Numbered from the stretch's first letter, positions 1,953 to 16,213 are shown. The stretch is 19,628 bases of DNA from a virus (IMGVR_UViG_2711768070_000008:1-19628), one strand, 5' to 3'. A program made the numbers and translations. Notes: a model not told the origin generated them from the letters alone.

Positions 1953-2231
1953 TTACCTCCAGATCCGTTGCTGGAATGTGCGGGACGGACGCGGTGGCCG
2001 TTCGGAGTAAGGGAGCCTGACGGAGATTATCCAGTGACGGTAGTCGAGGCTAAGGGCTTTTTTAACCTCGCATCCGCGCCTGCGGTAACACTGAATGAGC
2101 CATTCGGCCTGTTCTTCAGTGCATGGGGGATGCTGGTACCAGTCAGATTTGAATGCGTGAAAACACCGTCCGCGCCTGCTGGCAAAGACGGCAGAATCAT
2201 CAGAATTGTATAATTTGGTATCGTGCGCCAT
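1953..2231 (-). CDS. Small nin-region hypothetical protein (Rem-like position)
   Basis: Track ORF 1953..2312 trimmed to the internal ATG at 2231, because the longer N-terminus would run up to the terminator hairpin at 2302..2330. Confidence 0.5.
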   Translation of the reverse strand: MAHDTKLYNSDDSAVFASRRGRCFHAFKSDWYQHPPCTEEQAEWLIQCYRRRGCEVKKALSLDYRHWIISVRLPYSERPPRPSRTFQQRIWR

Positions 2232-2301
2232 CGGTTGTCTCTGCTGGCGCAGCAGGTGCCAGTTGTTCAGGCTGGCGTGCGAATTGTAAACCAGAATGCC
2301 A

Positions 2302-2330
2302 GGAAAAAACAAAACCCGCCGAAGCGGGTT
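2302..2330 (-). terminator. Rho-independent terminator downstream of hok
   Basis: Minus-strand hairpin AACCCGC-TTCG-GCGGGTT (2330..2313) followed by TTTTGTTTTTT (2312..2302). Confidence 0.7.
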
Positions 2331-2398
2331 AAGTGCGGGTGCGTTGAGGATGCCTGATTCATCAGAGGTGGCGAGGGATTTCTCCCTCGCCGGGTCTC

Positions 2399-2554
2399 TT
2401 ACTCCTCAGGTTCGTAAGCTGTGAAGACAGCGACCTCCGTCTGGCCGGTTCGGATTCGTACCTCGCAGAGGTCTTTCCTCGTTACCAGTGCCGTCACTAT
2501 GACGGTGATACAGATGACGATCAGGGCGATTAACATCGCCTTTTGCTGCTTCAT
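2399..2554 (-). CDS. hokD: Hok family type I toxin (HokD/RelF-like), 51 aa
   Basis: Sequence MKQQKAMLIALIVICITVIVTALVTRKDLCEVRIRTGQTEVAVFTAYEPEE is a textbook Hok peptide; AAGGAG RBS 9 nt upstream of the ATG at 2554; track ORF 2399..2611 includes a spurious in-frame N-terminal extension. Confidence 0.9.
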   Translation of the reverse strand: MKQQKAMLIALIVICITVIVTALVTRKDLCEVRIRTGQTEVAVFTAYEPEE

Positions 2555-2720
2555 AGCCTGCTTCTCCTTGCCTTTCGGCGCGTAAGAGGCTAACCTACAT
2601 ATGTCTAGCATGAAATTGGCCTCAGATTAATGTTAGGCGTCTTGCAGGACGCGTAATGTTAACTGGGGCTTTTCTCTGTCTGCCTTACGGTGGCATGCCC
2701 GAGGCAGACAGCCTCAAGCA
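2555..2720 (-). promoter_or_regulatory. Structured hok mRNA leader; possible mok/Sok antisense region
   Basis: Several stem-loops (e.g. CTGTCTGCC at 2676-2684 with GGCAGACAG at 2703-2711; GAGGC/GCCTC at 2701-2715) directly upstream of hok; no relBE genes present. Sok itself is not identified. Confidence 0.35.
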
Positions 2721-2769
2721 CCCGCAGCAATTCTACTTAACTCTCGCTTTACCGCAAACCGTTTTTACC

Positions 2770-2791
2770 CGATATGGGAATTCCCATATCG
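2770..2791. repeat. Perfect 22-bp palindrome CGATATGGGAATTCCCATATCG
   Basis: Read directly from the sequence; lies 9 bp beyond the stop of the 34-codon ORF; no U-tract on either strand. Confidence 0.8.
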
Positions 2792-2799
2792 TAATGAAT

Positions 2800-2904
2800 T
2801 CAGTTCCCTAGTCGATCCATCAAAAACACAACCAGGCAGTAAACGCCCACAACAGCAATAACAGCCAGAGCACCTTCCATTGCCAGTGAAATATCATCCG
2901 ACAT
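2800..2904 (-). CDS. Candidate 34-aa hydrophobic small protein (MSDDISLAMEGALAVIAVVGVYCLVVFLMDRLGN)
   Basis: ATG at 2904 preceded by AGGAGGG at 5-nt spacing; one predicted transmembrane helix; below the 60-aa cutoff of the ORF track. Confidence 0.45.
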   Translation of the reverse strand: MSDDISLAMEGALAVIAVVGVYCLVVFLMDRLGN

Positions 2905-3019
2905 ATTCCCTCCTTTGGTGTGAATCCCGGCGAACGTTTTTACCCCCACCGACAAATAACATATACTAAAAAATCAATAGCTATAGCAACGCCTGTAATT
3001 GCAAAGGCTTCAGGCCAGA

Positions 3020-3604
3020 TCATTGGCGCACCTCCTGCGGCGGTTCTGGTAGCGGCATCCAGTCGGTTACATTGCGGCTCTGTGTTTCGAAAAATTCATC
3101 ACCATTACGGACTACATCAAAAAACTCACCGTCTCGATATTGCGCATAAAGAACGAATGCGCCATCACATAAAATAATTACGTGCTGACCATCATCCGGC
3201 ATTCGCTCACTACAGCTTATCCAACCATCCGGAGTTACCGGATAGTTGGTTGACGTTTCCGAGATTTCCCGAAAATTATTGGTTGACGAACCCTTATTTT
3301 CCCGAAAGTTTCCAGCCTGAAGCATGGCGGCGCTGTCTGGCGGGGCAGCATATAGCGGCACGTATATTTCCGGTTCCTTATCAGCACCGGGTTGCTCTTC
3401 CAGTGAGAATGTCTTTCCGGTAAATCGATTCATATAAAGCACGGGCTCTGCTTCCAGCGAAGCCTGAGCAACAAGGGCCAGTGCTAAATCCAACTCAATT
3501 GCCTCGAGAGAATTTTTGAATACTGTCTGTTTTACTGCAAATTTCATCGCCTTTACATTTTCACTAACATGACTGATTAACTGCTCTTTTGTAAAAGTGG
3601 TCAT
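3020..3604 (-). CDS. DUF551-like phage protein
   Basis: C-terminal DGWISCSERMPDDG...DWMPLPEPP motif typical of DUF551; start moved to ATG at 3604 (AAGGAG RBS) from the GTG at 3664. Confidence 0.7.
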   Translation of the reverse strand: MTTFTKEQLISHVSENVKAMKFAVKQTVFKNSLEAIELDLALALVAQASLEAEPVLYMNRFTGKTFSLEEQPGADKEPEIYVPLYAAPPDSAAMLQAGNFRENKGSSTNNFREISETSTNYPVTPDGWISCSERMPDDGQHVIILCDGAFVLYAQYRDGEFFDVVRNGDEFFETQSRNVTDWMPLPEPPQEVRQ

Positions 3605-12320: not shown

Positions 12321-12524
12321 ATGAGCAACTTATTTTTAACCGAAGATGAATTGCTAATATTAACGGGCTGCAAATATGCAAGCCACCAGCGAAAATGGTT
12401 AACGGAAAACGGGCTTCCGTTCTATACCAATCGTAGTGGCAAACCGATTGTCAGCCGGGATCTATTTACCTGCAATAAAACTTTACCACCACGCGAGGTA
12501 GAGCCGAATTTTGGTGCAATCTAA
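12321..12524 (+). CDS. xis: Excisionase-like protein (Xis)
   Basis: 67 aa, immediately upstream of int with a 1-nt overlap; resembles small phage excisionases. Confidence 0.6.
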   Translation: MSNLFLTEDELLILTGCKYASHQRKWLTENGLPFYTNRSGKPIVSRDLFTCNKTLPPREVEPNFGAI

Positions 12525-13549
12525 TGGGAAGACGAAGGAAAAATCCTGAACACGAAAAACTACCTCCAAATGTATACCCAAATAAATATAGTTATGTATG
12601 GAAACCAACATCCAGAGAATCTGTCACACTAACCGCCATCAAGGATGGTTTAGCTGCTTTATGGAAAAAGTATGAGGAAACTGTAAATAATCGCGATCGT
12701 GCAATGACATTCGGTCGCTTGTGGGAAAAATTCCTCGCCAGCGCCTATTACAGTGACCTCAGTCCAAGAACACAAAAAGATTATCTGCAACATCAAAAAA
12801 AGTTGCTTGCCGTATTCGGTAAGGTGCCGGCAGATTCCATAAAACCAGAACACATCCGTCGATACATGGACAAGAGAGGGGAACAGAGTAAAACGCAAGC
12901 CAACCATGAAAAAAGCAGTATGTCCCGCGTTTACAGTTGGGGGTATGAGCGAGGGTACGTGAAGGCTAACCCATGTGCAGGTGTAAGTAAATTCAAGGCC
13001 AAAAACCGCGAACGATATGTAACCGACAAAGAATACCAGGCAGTATTAAGCGTTGCACCTCTTCCTGTTTTTATCGCAATGGAAATTGCCTATCTGTGTG
13101 CAGCGAGGGTTTCCGATGTGTTATCGCTGAAATGGGAGCAGATTGGAAACGACGGAATCTTTATCCAGCAAGGGAAAACAGGAAAAAAACAGATAAAAGC
13201 ATGGAGTCCACGATTACAGGCGGCGATCGAAAAAGCAAAACAGTTACCAACATCCGCCTATGTAATCAGTAATCAATACGGCAACCGATATATGTACAAA
13301 GGCTTTAACGAAATGTGGGTAGAAGCAAGAAATCGCGCAGGCAAAATTTCAGGTATTTTAACCGACTTCACCTTTCATGATCTGAAGGCGAAAGGAATTT
13401 CAGACTATGAAGGAAGCAGTCGGGATAAGCAACTTTTCTCTGGTCACAAAACCGAGGGGCAAGTGCTAATCTATGACAGGAAGGTTAAAGTTTCACCGAC
13501 ACTTGATGTCCCGTTACCTGAAAATATTCCAAGAAAATATTCCAAGTAA
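12524..13549 (+). CDS. int: Lambda-family tyrosine integrase
   Basis: 341 aa; C-terminal catalytic region with R...HDLKAKG...Y (LIYDRK); ends 52 bp from the tRNA-Ser 3' end. Confidence 0.9.
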   Translation: MGRRRKNPEHEKLPPNVYPNKYSYVWKPTSRESVTLTAIKDGLAALWKKYEETVNNRDRAMTFGRLWEKFLASAYYSDLSPRTQKDYLQHQKKLLAVFGKVPADSIKPEHIRRYMDKRGEQSKTQANHEKSSMSRVYSWGYERGYVKANPCAGVSKFKAKNRERYVTDKEYQAVLSVAPLPVFIAMEIAYLCAARVSDVLSLKWEQIGNDGIFIQQGKTGKKQIKAWSPRLQAAIEKAKQLPTSAYVISNQYGNRYMYKGFNEMWVEARNRAGKISGILTDFTFHDLKAKGISDYEGSSRDKQLFSGHKTEGQVLIYDRKVKVSPTLDVPLPENIPRKYSK

Positions 13550-13601
13550 TTCCAAGTGTGATTTTTGTCACTGACTTAATGATGTATAAGTGATTGAATT
13601 T

Positions 13602-13691
13602 TGGCGGAGAGAGGGGGATTTGAACCCCCGGTGGAGTTGCCCCCACTCCGGTTTTCGAGACCGGTCCGTTCAGCCGCTCCGGCATCTCTCC
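13602..13691 (-). tRNA. serU: tRNA-Ser (anticodon CGA)
   Basis: 90 nt; GGAGAGA acceptor stem, long variable arm, GGTTCAAATCC T-loop, CCA end; anticodon loop CU-CGA-AA. Confidence 0.9.
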
Positions 13692-13784
13692 GTTCAGATG
13701 GTTGCCATGATGCCAGGAAATTTGGCATTTTAACAGTCCCTGTCCGTGCAATTTTGTTCAAGTGACGAGTTTGCGAGCAAAACG

Positions 13785-14582
13785 ATGATTAAGTGGCCCT
13801 GGAAAGTACAAGAATCAGCACATCAAACTGCCCTTCCCTGGCAGGAAGCACTATCGATCCCCCTTTTAACGGGTCTGACGGAACAGGAACAAAGCAAATT
13901 AGTCACTCTTGCCGAACGTTTTTTACAGCAAAAGCGGCTTGTTCCTTTACAGGGCTTTGAACTGGATTCATTAAGAAGCTGCCGGATAGCACTTCTATTT
14001 TGCCTACCCGTTCTGGAGTTAGGACTGGAATGGCTGGATGGTTTTCATGAAGTCTTAATTTATCCTGCGCCATTTGTGGTCGATGATGAATGGGAAGACG
14101 ATATCGGTCTGGTGCATAACCAACGTATTGTTCAGTCAGGTCAGAGCTGGCAGCAAGGGCCTATCGTTTTGAACTGGTTGGATATACAAGATTCTTTTGA
14201 TGCATCTGGTTTTAACCTGATTATTCATGAAGTCGCTCATAAGCTGGACACCCGTAACGGCGATCGCGCCAGCGGAGTTCCCTTTATTTCGTTGCGTGAG
14301 GTTGCTGGCTGGGAACACGATCTTCATGCTGCAATGAACAACATTCAGGAAGAAATCGAATTAGTTGGTGAGAATGCGGCGAGCATTGATGCTTATGCTG
14401 CCAGTGATCCTGCTGAATGTTTTGCCGTACTTTCTGAATATTTCTTTAGCGCCCCAGAACTTTTTGCTCCTCGTTTCCCTTCATTGTGGCAACATTTCTG
14501 TCAATTTTATCAACAAGATCCTTTGCAGAGACTGCATCACGCTAATGATACAGACTCGTTTTCGGCGACGAATGTTCATTAA
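13785..14582 (+). CDS. mtfA: MtfA (Mlc titration factor A) zinc-dependent peptidase
   Basis: Recognised sequence beginning [10 protein letters not shown]; HEVAHK zinc-binding motif; track ORF 13746 start is an over-extension. Confidence 0.9.
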
Positions 14583-14635
14583 TTAACAACTTTGCAGATT
14601 AATTAACCAATTGAAATGGCTTATGAAATTTAGTG

Positions 14636-14664
14636 TTGACAGACAAGGTACCGCTAAGTAATAT
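14636..14664 (+). promoter_or_regulatory. tRNA-Asn promoter
   Basis: TTGACA (14636-14641), 17-bp spacer, TAATAT (14659-14664), GC-rich discriminator GCGCTCC, AT-rich upstream region. Confidence 0.6.
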
Positions 14665-14682
14665 GCGCTCCGTTCACACGAT

Positions 14683-14758
14683 TCCTCTGTAGTTCAGTCG
14701 GTAGAACGGCGGACTGTTAATCCGTATGTCACTGGTTCGAGTCCAGTCAGAGGAGCCA
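14683..14758 (+). tRNA. asnT: tRNA-Asn (anticodon GTT)
   Basis: 76 nt canonical E. coli tRNA-Asn sequence; the asnT name comes only from its position next to mtfA. Confidence 0.95.
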
Positions 14759-14765
14759 TTTTCAA

Positions 14766-14795
14766 GAAAGCAGACGTTCACTAACGTCTGCTTTC
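14766..14795 (+). terminator. Stem-loop downstream of tRNA-Asn
   Basis: GAAAGCAGACGTT-CACT-AACGTCTGCTTTC perfect 13-bp stem; following tract is only moderately T-rich. Confidence 0.55.
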
Positions 14796-14938
14796 TGCAT
14801 TTCTATCAATTGGTTATCCCCTCTCAGTCGTTCACCCTCGTTCACTAAAAACCACTCGAAGCCATATCATTTTGATGGTAAAAATGCTGGTAATGCTGGT
14901 TCGATTTCCCTTTTACCAACAAATGAGGGGGTGTTTTC

Positions 14939-16213
14939 ATGTCACTGACTGATATTAAAGCAAAAAATGCAAAACCCCTTGAGAAGGAATACAAGCTTAC
15001 TGATGGCTTTGGTATGTTCCTTCGTGTTACCCCTAAAGGTTCGAAATACTGGCAAATGGCTTACCGCTTCGAAGGGAAACAAAAACTCTTCTCTATTGGT
15101 GTTTACCCTGCAGTTTCTCTTTCTGACGCAAGACAACGCCGTGACGAGGCCAGAAGGCTTCTGGCTCAGGGTATTGACCCTAATGCAAAGAAACAGGCAG
15201 AGGTTAAAGAGCTTAAAGCCAAACGTGATAATACACGCTCCTTCAGAACAGTAGCCAAAGCGTGGTTCTCCACGAAAACAAAATGGTCTGATGATTATGG
15301 CGATGCCGTATGGAAGCGCCTTGAAACTTATGTCTTCCCGGTAATCGGTGACAAAGATGTTGCCGAACTGGATACGGGTGATCTGCTGGTTCCGGTGAAA
15401 AAAGTTGAGGCTCTTGGTTATCTTGAAGTTGCCATGCGCATTCAACAATACATTACGGCAATCCTGCGTCATGCCGTCCAGCAAAAGCTGATACGCCATA
15501 ACCCAGCCTATGATATGGAAGGTGCAGTTCAGAAACCACAAACTGAACACCGCCCTGCACTTGAGCTGGAAGAAATACCCCAGCTACTGAACAAAATTGC
15601 CGAATACAAAGGCCGCAGGTTAACCATACTGGCAATACAGCTCAATCTGATGATTTTCATTCGTTCCAGTGAGCTTCGTTTCGCTCGCTGGTCTGAAATT
15701 GATTTCAAAAGTAAGTTATGGGTGATACCCGAACAGCGTGAAGCAATTGAAAACGTCAAACATTCGACTCGTGGTGCCAAAATGAAGCGTAAGCACTTCG
15801 TTCCCCTTTGTAAGCAAGCTATGAGGATACTAAAAGAGATCCGACAACTGACTTATGAAGAAGGCCATGATGATGGATTAATCTTCACTGGCTGTTATGA
15901 CTCGTTTAAACCCATGAGTGAAAACACCATCAACAAAGCCCTGCGTAATATGGGATATAACACGAAGCAGGACATCTGTGGACACGGTTTCCGCACTCTG
16001 GCCTGTAGTGCCTTAATTGAGTCCGGGCTATGGTCAGAAGACGCTGTAGAGCTTCAAATGAGCCATAAGGAAAGCAACAGCGTCCGTGCTGCTTATACCC
16101 ACAAGGCTAAACACCTTGATCAACGCCGTCTGATGCTCCAATGGTGGGCTGACTACCTTGATGCAAGCAGAAACGGTATGGTAAGGCCGTTTGAGTTTGC
16201 TTCAAATAAATAA
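14939..16213 (+). CDS. int: P4-type tyrosine integrase
   Basis: 424 aa; N-terminus MSLTDIKAKNAKP...YKLTDGFGMFLRVTPKGSKYW typical of P4-like integrases; C-terminal HGFRTL...Y catalytic motifs; GAGGGGG RBS. Confidence 0.9.
   Translation: MSLTDIKAKNAKPLEKEYKLTDGFGMFLRVTPKGSKYWQMAYRFEGKQKLFSIGVYPAVSLSDARQRRDEARRLLAQGIDPNAKKQAEVKELKAKRDNTRSFRTVAKAWFSTKTKWSDDYGDAVWKRLETYVFPVIGDKDVAELDTGDLLVPVKKVEALGYLEVAMRIQQYITAILRHAVQQKLIRHNPAYDMEGAVQKPQTEHRPALELEEIPQLLNKIAEYKGRRLTILAIQLNLMIFIRSSELRFARWSEIDFKSKLWVIPEQREAIENVKHSTRGAKMKRKHFVPLCKQAMRILKEIRQLTYEEGHDDGLIFTGCYDSFKPMSENTINKALRNMGYNTKQDICGHGFRTLACSALIESGLWSEDAVELQMSHKESNSVRAAYTHKAKHLDQRRLMLQWWADYLDASRNGMVRPFEFASNK

Follow-up and report, generated by a model that had tools for sequence, protein, structure and literature searches.

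Escherichia coli has a class of small regulatory inner-membrane proteins that includes AcrZ, MgrB, MgtS, and CydX. The closest described counterpart of the locus analyzed here is XECs145, an intergenic open reading frame (ORF) for which Hucker et al. 2017 (PMC5597208) reported a convincing ribosome profiling (RIBOseq) signal in E. coli O157:H7 Sakai and predicted an inner-membrane protein. We analyzed a 19,628-nucleotide (nt) stretch of viral DNA, IMGVR_UViG_2711768070_000008:1-19628 (the whole of which is hereafter called the window), whose minus strand carries at 2800..2904 an ORF with the same 34-amino acid (aa) sequence as XECs145 (ECs_5710, WP_001278450.1) and the same neighbors as in the Sakai prophage Sp6, namely, a DUF551 gene upstream and mok/hok downstream. 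The ORF is followed, at 2770..2791, by a perfect 22-bp palindrome. The palindrome is the novel part of the locus, the ORF being of an ordinary kind and already on record. With moderate confidence, we favor a two-part reading of the locus, in which a benign accessory membrane-peptide gene lies next to a separate, sequence-specific palindrome element.

The ORF extends from an ATG at 2904-2902 to a TGA at 2802-2800, encodes MSDDISLAMEGALAVIAVVGVYCLVVFLMDRLGN, and is preceded by a Shine-Dalgarno sequence, AGGAGGG (2908..2914), at a distance of 3 nt from the ATG (4 nt from the GGAGG core). A first-pass annotation of the window, made from the sequence alone, had pointed to an unannotated 34-codon hydrophobic ORF with this Shine-Dalgarno sequence. 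The sequence bears out the minus-strand ORF and its AGGAGGG, and hydropathy predicts a single helix; the ORF is nevertheless annotated, being present in RefSeq (WP_001278450.1), UniRef (A0A0J2ETP2_ECOLX), the Sakai annotation (ECs_5710), and PMC5597208 (XECs145). DNA 100% identical to window positions 2600-3100 occurs in many E. coli chromosomes, including NC_013353.1 (O103:H2 strain 12009), where the ORF is a 105-nt coding sequence for the “hypothetical protein” WP_001278450.1, and in O157:H7 Sakai, the ORF is ECs_5710/YP_009502606.1, located in prophage Sp6 and followed by mok/hok. The exact 34-aa protein is encoded on approximately 1000 contigs, and the ORF region is matched in 732 of 5426 complete E. 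coli genomes (approximately 13%), at a median of 3 places per genome. The carriers among these genomes belong mostly to Shiga toxin-producing lineages and often contain multiple copies.

Translation, for which the first-pass annotation had suggested ribosome profiling as a check, is already documented for Sakai in PMC5597208. In the S2 table of that study, XECs145 has 79.1 reads per kilobase per million mapped reads (RPKM) of RNA and 346.1 RPKM of ribosome footprints in lysogeny broth (LB), corresponding to a ribosome coverage value of 4.35 with an ORF coverage of 0.99. The respective figures are 121.3 and 150.1 RPKM, 1.14, and 0.84 in brain heart infusion, and 73.3 and 1.1 RPKM, 0.01, and 0.37 under cold and salt stress. 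The threshold for translation set in the study is a ribosome coverage value of 0.25, and the LB value of 4.35 is among the higher ones in the portion of the table examined. A longer, 54-aa form with a non-ATG start was called there; we favor the 34-aa form, for which both the RefSeq annotation and the conservation of the Shine-Dalgarno sequence with its ATG speak. When the mRNA region is folded at minimum energy, almost no base of the Shine-Dalgarno sequence is paired. The best 19-residue Kyte-Doolittle window of the peptide scores 2.72 and covers residues 11-29, a predicted single transmembrane helix. The ORF is a real, translated small-protein gene that was already on record.

Neither the 34-aa peptide nor the 27-aa peptide of a second small ORF located upstream (see below) gave anything meaningful in scans of Pfam, PHROGs, NCBIfam, and PADLOC; the 34-aa peptide had no Pfam match at E ≤ 1, including to Hok/Gef (PF01848), which the neighboring mok/hok matches at E = 2.3e-23. 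A phmmer search of 1.84 billion representative sequences returned 7 matches, all of them close variants, with no distant family visible, and literature searches on the peptide and its accessions returned nothing relevant. The 90% identity clusters that hold the small peptides also include unrelated long proteins, such as a Stappia xanthine dehydrogenase and 121-aa DUF551 proteins devoid of the peptide sequence, which is a clustering artefact for very short sequences rather than biology.

Homologs of the ORF came to light in a translated search of phage genomes, which yielded four weak matches (E approximately 0.09, 44% to 50% identity), all on the hok strand and 211 nt before the hok ATG; we accepted these as homologs because all of them share this identical placement. 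Three subtypes that keep the reading frame can be recognized, namely, type A (the window), type A′ (locus L296, MSDDILLAMEGALAVVAVMAIYCLVVFLIDRRGG, 76% identical to the window type), and type B (MLVLKCALAIAAVMAIYCLAVVLMDRLSD, 44% to 50% identical, with a GTG start 5 nt after GGAGG). Selection was assessed from synonymous and nonsynonymous counts within each clade. Type A (9 haplotypes among 101 loci) has 10 synonymous versus 6 nonsynonymous changes (p = 0.0024 in the ORF frame), and type B (17 haplotypes among 46 loci) has 12 versus 12 (p = 0.009 in the ORF frame), with the other two frames giving p = 0.5-0.9, so that the synonymous excess is confined to the ORF frame. One allele replaces the stop codon TGA with TAA. 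The pairwise ratio of nonsynonymous to synonymous rates between types A and B, 0.38, was barely different from the 0.41 of an alternative frame and was not relied on. Frame conservation, another check put forward in the first-pass annotation, thus speaks for the gene. A scan of the genome collection found ORF loci only in Escherichia and Shigella, plus short contigs binned to other genera that are probably mis-binned; the ORF family is confined to lambdoid prophages of Escherichia and Shigella.

The palindrome, CGATATGGGAATTCCCATATCG, begins 8 nt past the ORF stop, rather than the 9 bp given originally, and spans approximately −47 to −68 of the hok mRNA start, with its center near −58. It is present in a single copy in the window and had no match in 200 shuffles even when 3 mismatches were allowed; the number of perfect 22-bp palindromes expected in 19.6 kb is approximately 0.005. 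As RNA, it would form a 9-bp stem with 4 G-C pairs and a 4-nt AAUU loop, which is present in both the minimum-energy and centroid folds, and the predicted hairpin fold of 81 nt has a free energy of −22.4 kcal/mol (z = −3.0). That the palindrome is perfect and is not followed by a U-tract, as described in the first-pass annotation, is plain from the sequence: the minus strand continues with GGUAAAAACGG and the plus strand with UAAUGAAUUC. A terminator scan was silent at this position although it found the hok terminator at 2330-2313, and a scan of 2200-3200 against Rfam 15 (E ≤ 1) returned only the sok/hok leader and chance-level matches.

The palindrome is independent of the ORF, to which it had initially been tied. 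It does not belong to the ORF, since the B-type homologs are without it and since it remains at the flank of the hok promoter where something else has taken the place of the ORF. In loci where this is a module with the paa adhesin gene, only the final one and a half codons of the ORF are still homologous, and the palindrome, here a perfect one of 24 bp, is kept beside the hok promoter. In other hok loci, it follows a gene for an ORF6N-domain protein and lies 18-19 bp further from the promoter, so that the palindrome-to-anchor distance is 28 nt in some hok loci and 46-47 nt in others. Four upstream modules (the A-type ORF, paa, the ORF6N gene, and the type represented by locus L097) join the hok flank at the palindrome, which begins 7-17 nt after the stops of the upstream genes other than the ORF. 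Most of the variation among hok loci is in the four bases at the center or in the pairs at the ends, and one variant has a compensatory exchange of an A-T for a G-C pair. The palindrome is absent from the B-type hok loci and from those in which the 27-aa ORF directly abuts the promoter.

The same sequence recurs far beyond hok. Scanning of IMG/VR with the central 20-mer of the palindrome identified at least 119 stretches, including at least 78 copies of the exact 20-mer beside hok and at least 39 copies in at least 21 distinct non-hok contexts, in phages of 21% to 69% G+C; two composition-matched control palindromes with shuffled arms gave 0 matches. Approximately half of the non-hok contexts listed are inside KilA-N genes (PF04383), where the palindrome encodes D-M-G-I-P-I-S. 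The remaining copies look intergenic and have unrelated neighbors, being located in spacers of phages of 38% to 69% G+C after or before capsid genes (in one case, 20 nt after the major capsid gene), between rusA and DUF551, between rep-O and a CI-type repressor gene, or near ERF, an integrase, or an AAA protein. In the 15 contexts that were read by eye, the symmetry often continues into the flanks, with differing bases and up to 30 bp, and the C…G ends of the 22-mer of the window are present in 12 of these. A search with the palindrome sequence returned nothing relevant among the papers of the literature library used.

To avoid ascertainment by codon choice, the KilA-N genes were surveyed with a scan for any coding of DMGIPI[S/T]EL, which was complete and returned 88 stretches in 30 contexts. 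In the 28 distinct KilA-N windows, the motif uses GAT (28/28), CCC (28/28), ATA (28/28), TCG (23/23), ATT (26/28), and GGA or GGG, and variation is limited to the two outer bases of the central AATT. Identity at third positions is 86% within the motif versus 52% in the flanks, which are 70% identical overall and in which even invariant amino acid columns use 2 to 5 synonymous codons. This pattern indicates that the motif is under selection on its nucleotide sequence rather than on the protein. A bolder reading, somewhat less likely than not, is that the palindrome is a hitherto undescribed, specifically recognized element of unrelated tailed phages (a binding, cleavage, or recombination site for a widespread factor), which would be under selection even within KilA-N genes and would mark, at this locus, the boundary where various modules, the small gene among them, were joined to the hok cassette. 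The earlier suggestion of a recognized site thus holds in part: the palindrome is not a classical terminator and its recurrence fits a recognized site, but not for the reason that had been given.

The ORF and hok are closely linked. The hok promoter lies within 120 nt of the ORF stop in 74 of the 75 ORF loci with enough downstream DNA. For the converse survey, 115 hok promoters were sampled from IMG/VR by promoter sequence alone. Upstream of them, we found an intact B-type ORF in 37, an A-type ORF with the palindrome in 23 (one allele counted by eye), the 27-aa ORF abutting directly with no 34-aa ORF in 23, only the last codons of a B-type ORF fused to unrelated DNA in 16, the paa adhesin module with the palindrome in 8, and other arrangements in approximately 8. 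The hok cassette proper (2305-2746) is 94% to 96% identical between A and B loci, whereas the ORFs are approximately 60% identical. In the 16 remnant loci (L096, L099, L102, and 13 others), the last 6 to 11 B-type codons (ending in …LMDHLSD and the stop) remain, with at least three breakpoints, and none of them has lost the 20-35 bp just 5′ of the hok −35 element, which the hok promoter may require.

In the window, the ORF and the palindrome form a 175-bp segment that starts past the stop of the 27-aa ORF, reaches to the hok −35 element, and is bracketed by copies of an 11-bp direct repeat, GGGTAAAAACG, on the minus strand. The left copy (2935..2945) holds the stop codon of the 27-aa ORF, and the right copy (2760..2770) abuts the hok −35 element and overlaps the last base of the palindrome. 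The segment is cleanly absent from the collinear empty-site alleles L127, L139, and L116. That the repeat is the target-site duplication of a mobile unit was considered and rejected as unproven: the segment has no terminal inverted repeats, the right repeat is a conserved flank of the hok promoter in many contexts, and L296 is without the left copy. As remnant and empty-site alleles exist, the ORF is dispensable, that is, an accessory gene.

Three alternatives to the two-part reading concern the palindrome, and the evidence at hand bears unevenly on them. A generic stem-loop at the 3′ end of a small gene, serving as a weak terminator or exonuclease block without a sequence-specific role, would account for the stable predicted hairpin, its start 8 nt after the ORF stop and 7-17 nt after other upstream stops, the copy just behind the major capsid gene, and variation that falls in the loop or, once, compensates in the stem; we consider it unlikely, given that no U-tract follows, that the palindrome persists where the ORF is gone, and that such a structure would neither keep the same 20-22 bases in approximately 20 unrelated contexts, with the controls giving none, nor freeze the synonymous sites of KilA-N genes. 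It is this base-for-base recurrence in unrelated phages that makes a specifically recognized site fit better than a generic hairpin. The element could be recognized as DNA, either as an operator through which a dimeric protein acts on the hok promoter or as a recombination site for the exchange of phage modules, in keeping with its perfect dyad symmetry over 22-30 bp around a sequence-specific core, its location near −58 of the hok promoter, the joining of four different upstream modules to the hok flank there, and its placement elsewhere at module borders, namely, those that separate capsid from downstream genes, rusA from DUF551, and rep-O from the repressor gene. The distance to the hok promoter is, however, not fixed (28 versus 46-47 nt to the anchor), which suits a fixed-geometry activator poorly, the hok promoters of the B and 27-aa types do without the palindrome, and no shared neighbor gene or candidate binding protein was found in the loci surveyed, so that we rate a DNA site as conceivable but rather doubtful. 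The ORF6N domain is related to KilA-N, and an ORF6N gene lies just upstream in some hok loci; with one frame of the palindrome reading D-M-G-I-P-I-S, as in KilA-N genes, the copy beside hok might be a fossil, the last remnant of a former KilA-N-type gene. This is very improbable: the similarity stops at the symmetric 20-30 bp, the KilA-N flanks (ELIQSFKGG...) being kept neither at the hok loci nor around the intergenic copies; fossils decay, yet a perfect palindrome of 22-26 bp stays in different contexts; and the intergenic copies in unrelated phages would require the same accident many times.

The other two alternatives concern the peptide. It could be, as the first-pass annotation had proposed along with a regulatory role, a second small type I membrane toxin beside hok, one that kills or arrests cells when its translation escapes control. 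Its shortness, hydrophobicity, and single helix are those of such toxins, it adjoins a type I toxin locus, and an antisense RNA over the ribosome-binding site could arise from a weak promoter-like sequence of the other strand (2880-2907, 9/12 matches). Antisense promoter-like sites are, however, not above the shuffle expectation (3 found versus 1.4 expected), and the one at 2880-2907 falls within codons that are altered in the LVME allele and is without a counterpart in type B; moreover, the peptide has no match to Hok/Gef or to any Pfam, NCBIfam, or PADLOC family. Because the ribosome-binding site is exposed in the predicted fold rather than sequestered, translation is high in healthy cultures (the LB value of 4.35 from the part of PMC5597208 examined), the net charge of the peptide is −3 as against 0 for the Hok of the window, and the promoter scan showed no conserved antisense promoter, the evidence leans against a toxin, which we judge quite unlikely. 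The peptide may instead be a regulatory or accessory one of the membrane. Functional coupling to hok/sok, whereby the peptide modulates Hok in the membrane or upstream transcription or translation tunes the hok promoter or the 5′ end of its mRNA, would explain why 74 of the 75 ORF loci abut the hok promoter, why two divergent ORF subtypes keep their position next to a hok cassette that remains 94% to 96% identical, and why a different tiny membrane ORF, of 27 aa, abuts the promoter in 23 of the 115 loci, with most prophage hok promoters having a tiny membrane ORF that ends a few tens of nucleotides upstream. Against this, hok functions without such an ORF in plasmid R1, and the annotation of hokW in 933W shows none; many loci have a remnant or an empty site instead; elements only 8-40 nt apart in a single mosaic block would be linked by proximity in any case; and the text of a recent preprint surveying Hok makes no mention of neighbors, palindromes, DUF551, or DUF968. 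The tight position beside hok is more simply explained as physical linkage, and we hold coupling to be improbable.

Several observations weigh against the two-part reading that we favor. The near-obligate place of the ORF upstream of hok could, after all, reflect a functional tie. The Sakai footprint reads underlying the ribosome coverage value of 4.35 may be common to several identical prophage copies, and the promoter scan found no sigma-70 promoter with at least 9/12 matches on the ORF strand. As for the palindrome, a 1-nt deletion in one arm breaks the symmetry in 6 hok loci, as does the Thr codon variant in KilA-N genes, and the hairpin and DNA-site readings fit these data alike. A common neighbor gene marking the intergenic copies was sought and rejected, the neighbors being unrelated. 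The idea that a nearby KilA-N protein binds the palindrome likewise found no support: no KilA-N-like ORF is present in 168 hok loci, 12 loci with intergenic copies, or the window, the DNA examined being part of each phage.

In the two-part reading, the ORF is an efficiently translated gene for a 34-residue single-pass peptide, presumably of the inner membrane, and, in the nin region, part of the 175-bp accessory insert between the 27-aa membrane ORF and the hok promoter. The peptide is made in uninduced lysogens from its exposed, strong ribosome-binding site and would be a benign accessory small membrane protein rather than a type I toxin, dispensable for hok/sok. The palindrome is neither the terminator of the gene nor part of it, but an independent, sequence-specific 22-bp element with the conserved core TATGGG-RATY-CCCATA, which in this lineage delimits the hok cassette on its upstream side. 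It would most likely work through recognition, be it of a hairpin in RNA or DNA or of a DNA site bound by a dimer, and at this locus would separate the upstream transcription unit from the hok promoter.

The gene content of the window places the locus in the nin region of a lambdoid prophage. The minus-strand order is replication genes, DUF1627, DUF977, DUF551, the small ORFs, hok, DUF968, RusA, and antiterminator, and further along the window are YdaS/YdaT-type immunity genes and an integrase beside mtfA. Block analysis indicated that 2305-3063 moves as a single mosaic unit. All elements of the hok cassette are on the minus strand. The promoter (2730..2758) consists of a −35 element, TTTGCG (2758-2753), a 17-nt spacer, and a −10 element, TAGAAT (2735-2730), with an inferred transcript start near 2723, where the Rfam model also starts; a homologous promoter, TTGGCG-17-TAGAAT, was picked up by the promoter scan in phage Tritos. 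Directly 5′ of the −35 element is an A-tract, GGRTAAAAACG (2759-2770), which is kept in most non-B contexts, resembles the proximal subsite of an UP element, and in the 27-aa-type loci also contains the stop codon of the 27-aa ORF. The hok mRNA leader and sok region (2549..2723) matches Rfam RF01794 over the full length of the model (114.3 bits, E = 4.7e-27). The cassette further comprises mok (2399..2611, 70 codons), with hok (2399-2554) in the same frame (PF01848, E = 2.3e-23; annotated as hokD), and an intrinsic terminator, a stem and then a U-run, that the terminator scan located at 2313..2330. The distance of 245 nt from the ORF stop to the hok ATG (2554) is as originally reported, and so is the comparison with Qin of strain K-12, in which relE-relB occupy the slot upstream of hokD.

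Three further features of the window deserve mention. A sub-threshold Rfam match to isrK at 2309-2390 on the minus strand (27.7 bits versus a gathering score of 50, E = 8e-4) covers the hok terminator together with the 3′ portion of the hok transcript and is probably mere terminator similarity. Between hok and the DUF968 gene is a minus-strand ORF (1953-2312) whose last 66 residues match phrog_1212 (E = 1e-35); the hypothetical protein that RefSeq annotates there is shorter, at 92 aa, and in Qin, this place is held by rem. At 12524-16213 on the plus strand, two integrase genes flank mtfA (Peptidase_M90, 13746-14582). One of the integrases belongs to the end of the prophage of the window, whereas an Arm-DNA-binding domain of the type found in P4-like islands is present in the second; the window thus crosses a prophage-chromosome junction beside a second integrative element.

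The second small ORF, at 2940..3023 on the minus strand, encodes the hydrophobic 27-aa peptide MIWPEAFAITGVAIAIDFLVYVICRWG; its ATG overlaps the stop codon of DUF551 (ATGA), and GGAGGTG lies upstream. The RefSeq record examined has no annotation for this ORF, and annotations elsewhere are only sporadic; it was not found in the portion of the supplement text of PMC5597208 examined, a study with a cut-off of 30 aa. Among 109 loci with 22 haplotypes, 30 synonymous versus 28 nonsynonymous changes were counted (p = 8.7e-7 in the ORF frame and no such excess in the others), and every locus retains the ATGA overlap. The 27-aa ORF is probably a real, translationally coupled small gene.

The 34-aa ORF itself changes little, adding one more translated and annotated small protein of prophages. 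Finding the partner of the palindrome, on the other hand, could explain a recurrent boundary between phage modules and provide a handle on the poorly understood KilA-N genes. In addition, most of the sampled prophage hok promoters have just upstream, ending within a few tens of bases, a tiny membrane ORF of one or the other of two unrelated kinds, which may bear on the expression of prophage hok.

Set against known systems, the palindrome resembles Rho-independent terminators and repetitive extragenic palindromic (REP) units in being a stable stem-loop just past stop codons. It has the stem-loop of the former but lacks their U-run. Like REP elements, it is the same unit repeated in many genomes, but whereas a genome has many REP copies, a phage has a single copy of the palindrome; the palindrome is also found within the reading frames of KilA-N genes, under constraint at the codon level, and has no Rfam family. 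Compared with type I toxins (Hok/Gef, Ldr, TisB, Ibs, and Zor), the ORF is alike in size, in its one hydrophobic helix, and in its prophage site beside hok/sok; it differs in having no family match, an open ribosome-binding site, high translation during normal growth, an acidic charge, and no conserved antisense RNA signal in the promoter scan. The segment is similar to phage morons as a discrete 175-bp indel with empty-site alleles that ends in a stem-loop, as well as in its expression in uninduced Sakai, as recorded by RNA-seq and RIBOseq in the part of PMC5597208 examined, to which low-level spontaneous induction may contribute. It departs from morons in having no recognizable promoter of its own, in a stem-loop that is without a U-tract and shared rather than private, and in a left direct repeat that is missing in L296. 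Although the ORF has no sequence relation to the small regulatory proteins of the AcrZ, MgrB, MgtS, and CydX class and is prophage-borne and multi-copy (the median of 3 places per genome), it is like them in length, in its single helix, and in being translated during normal growth.

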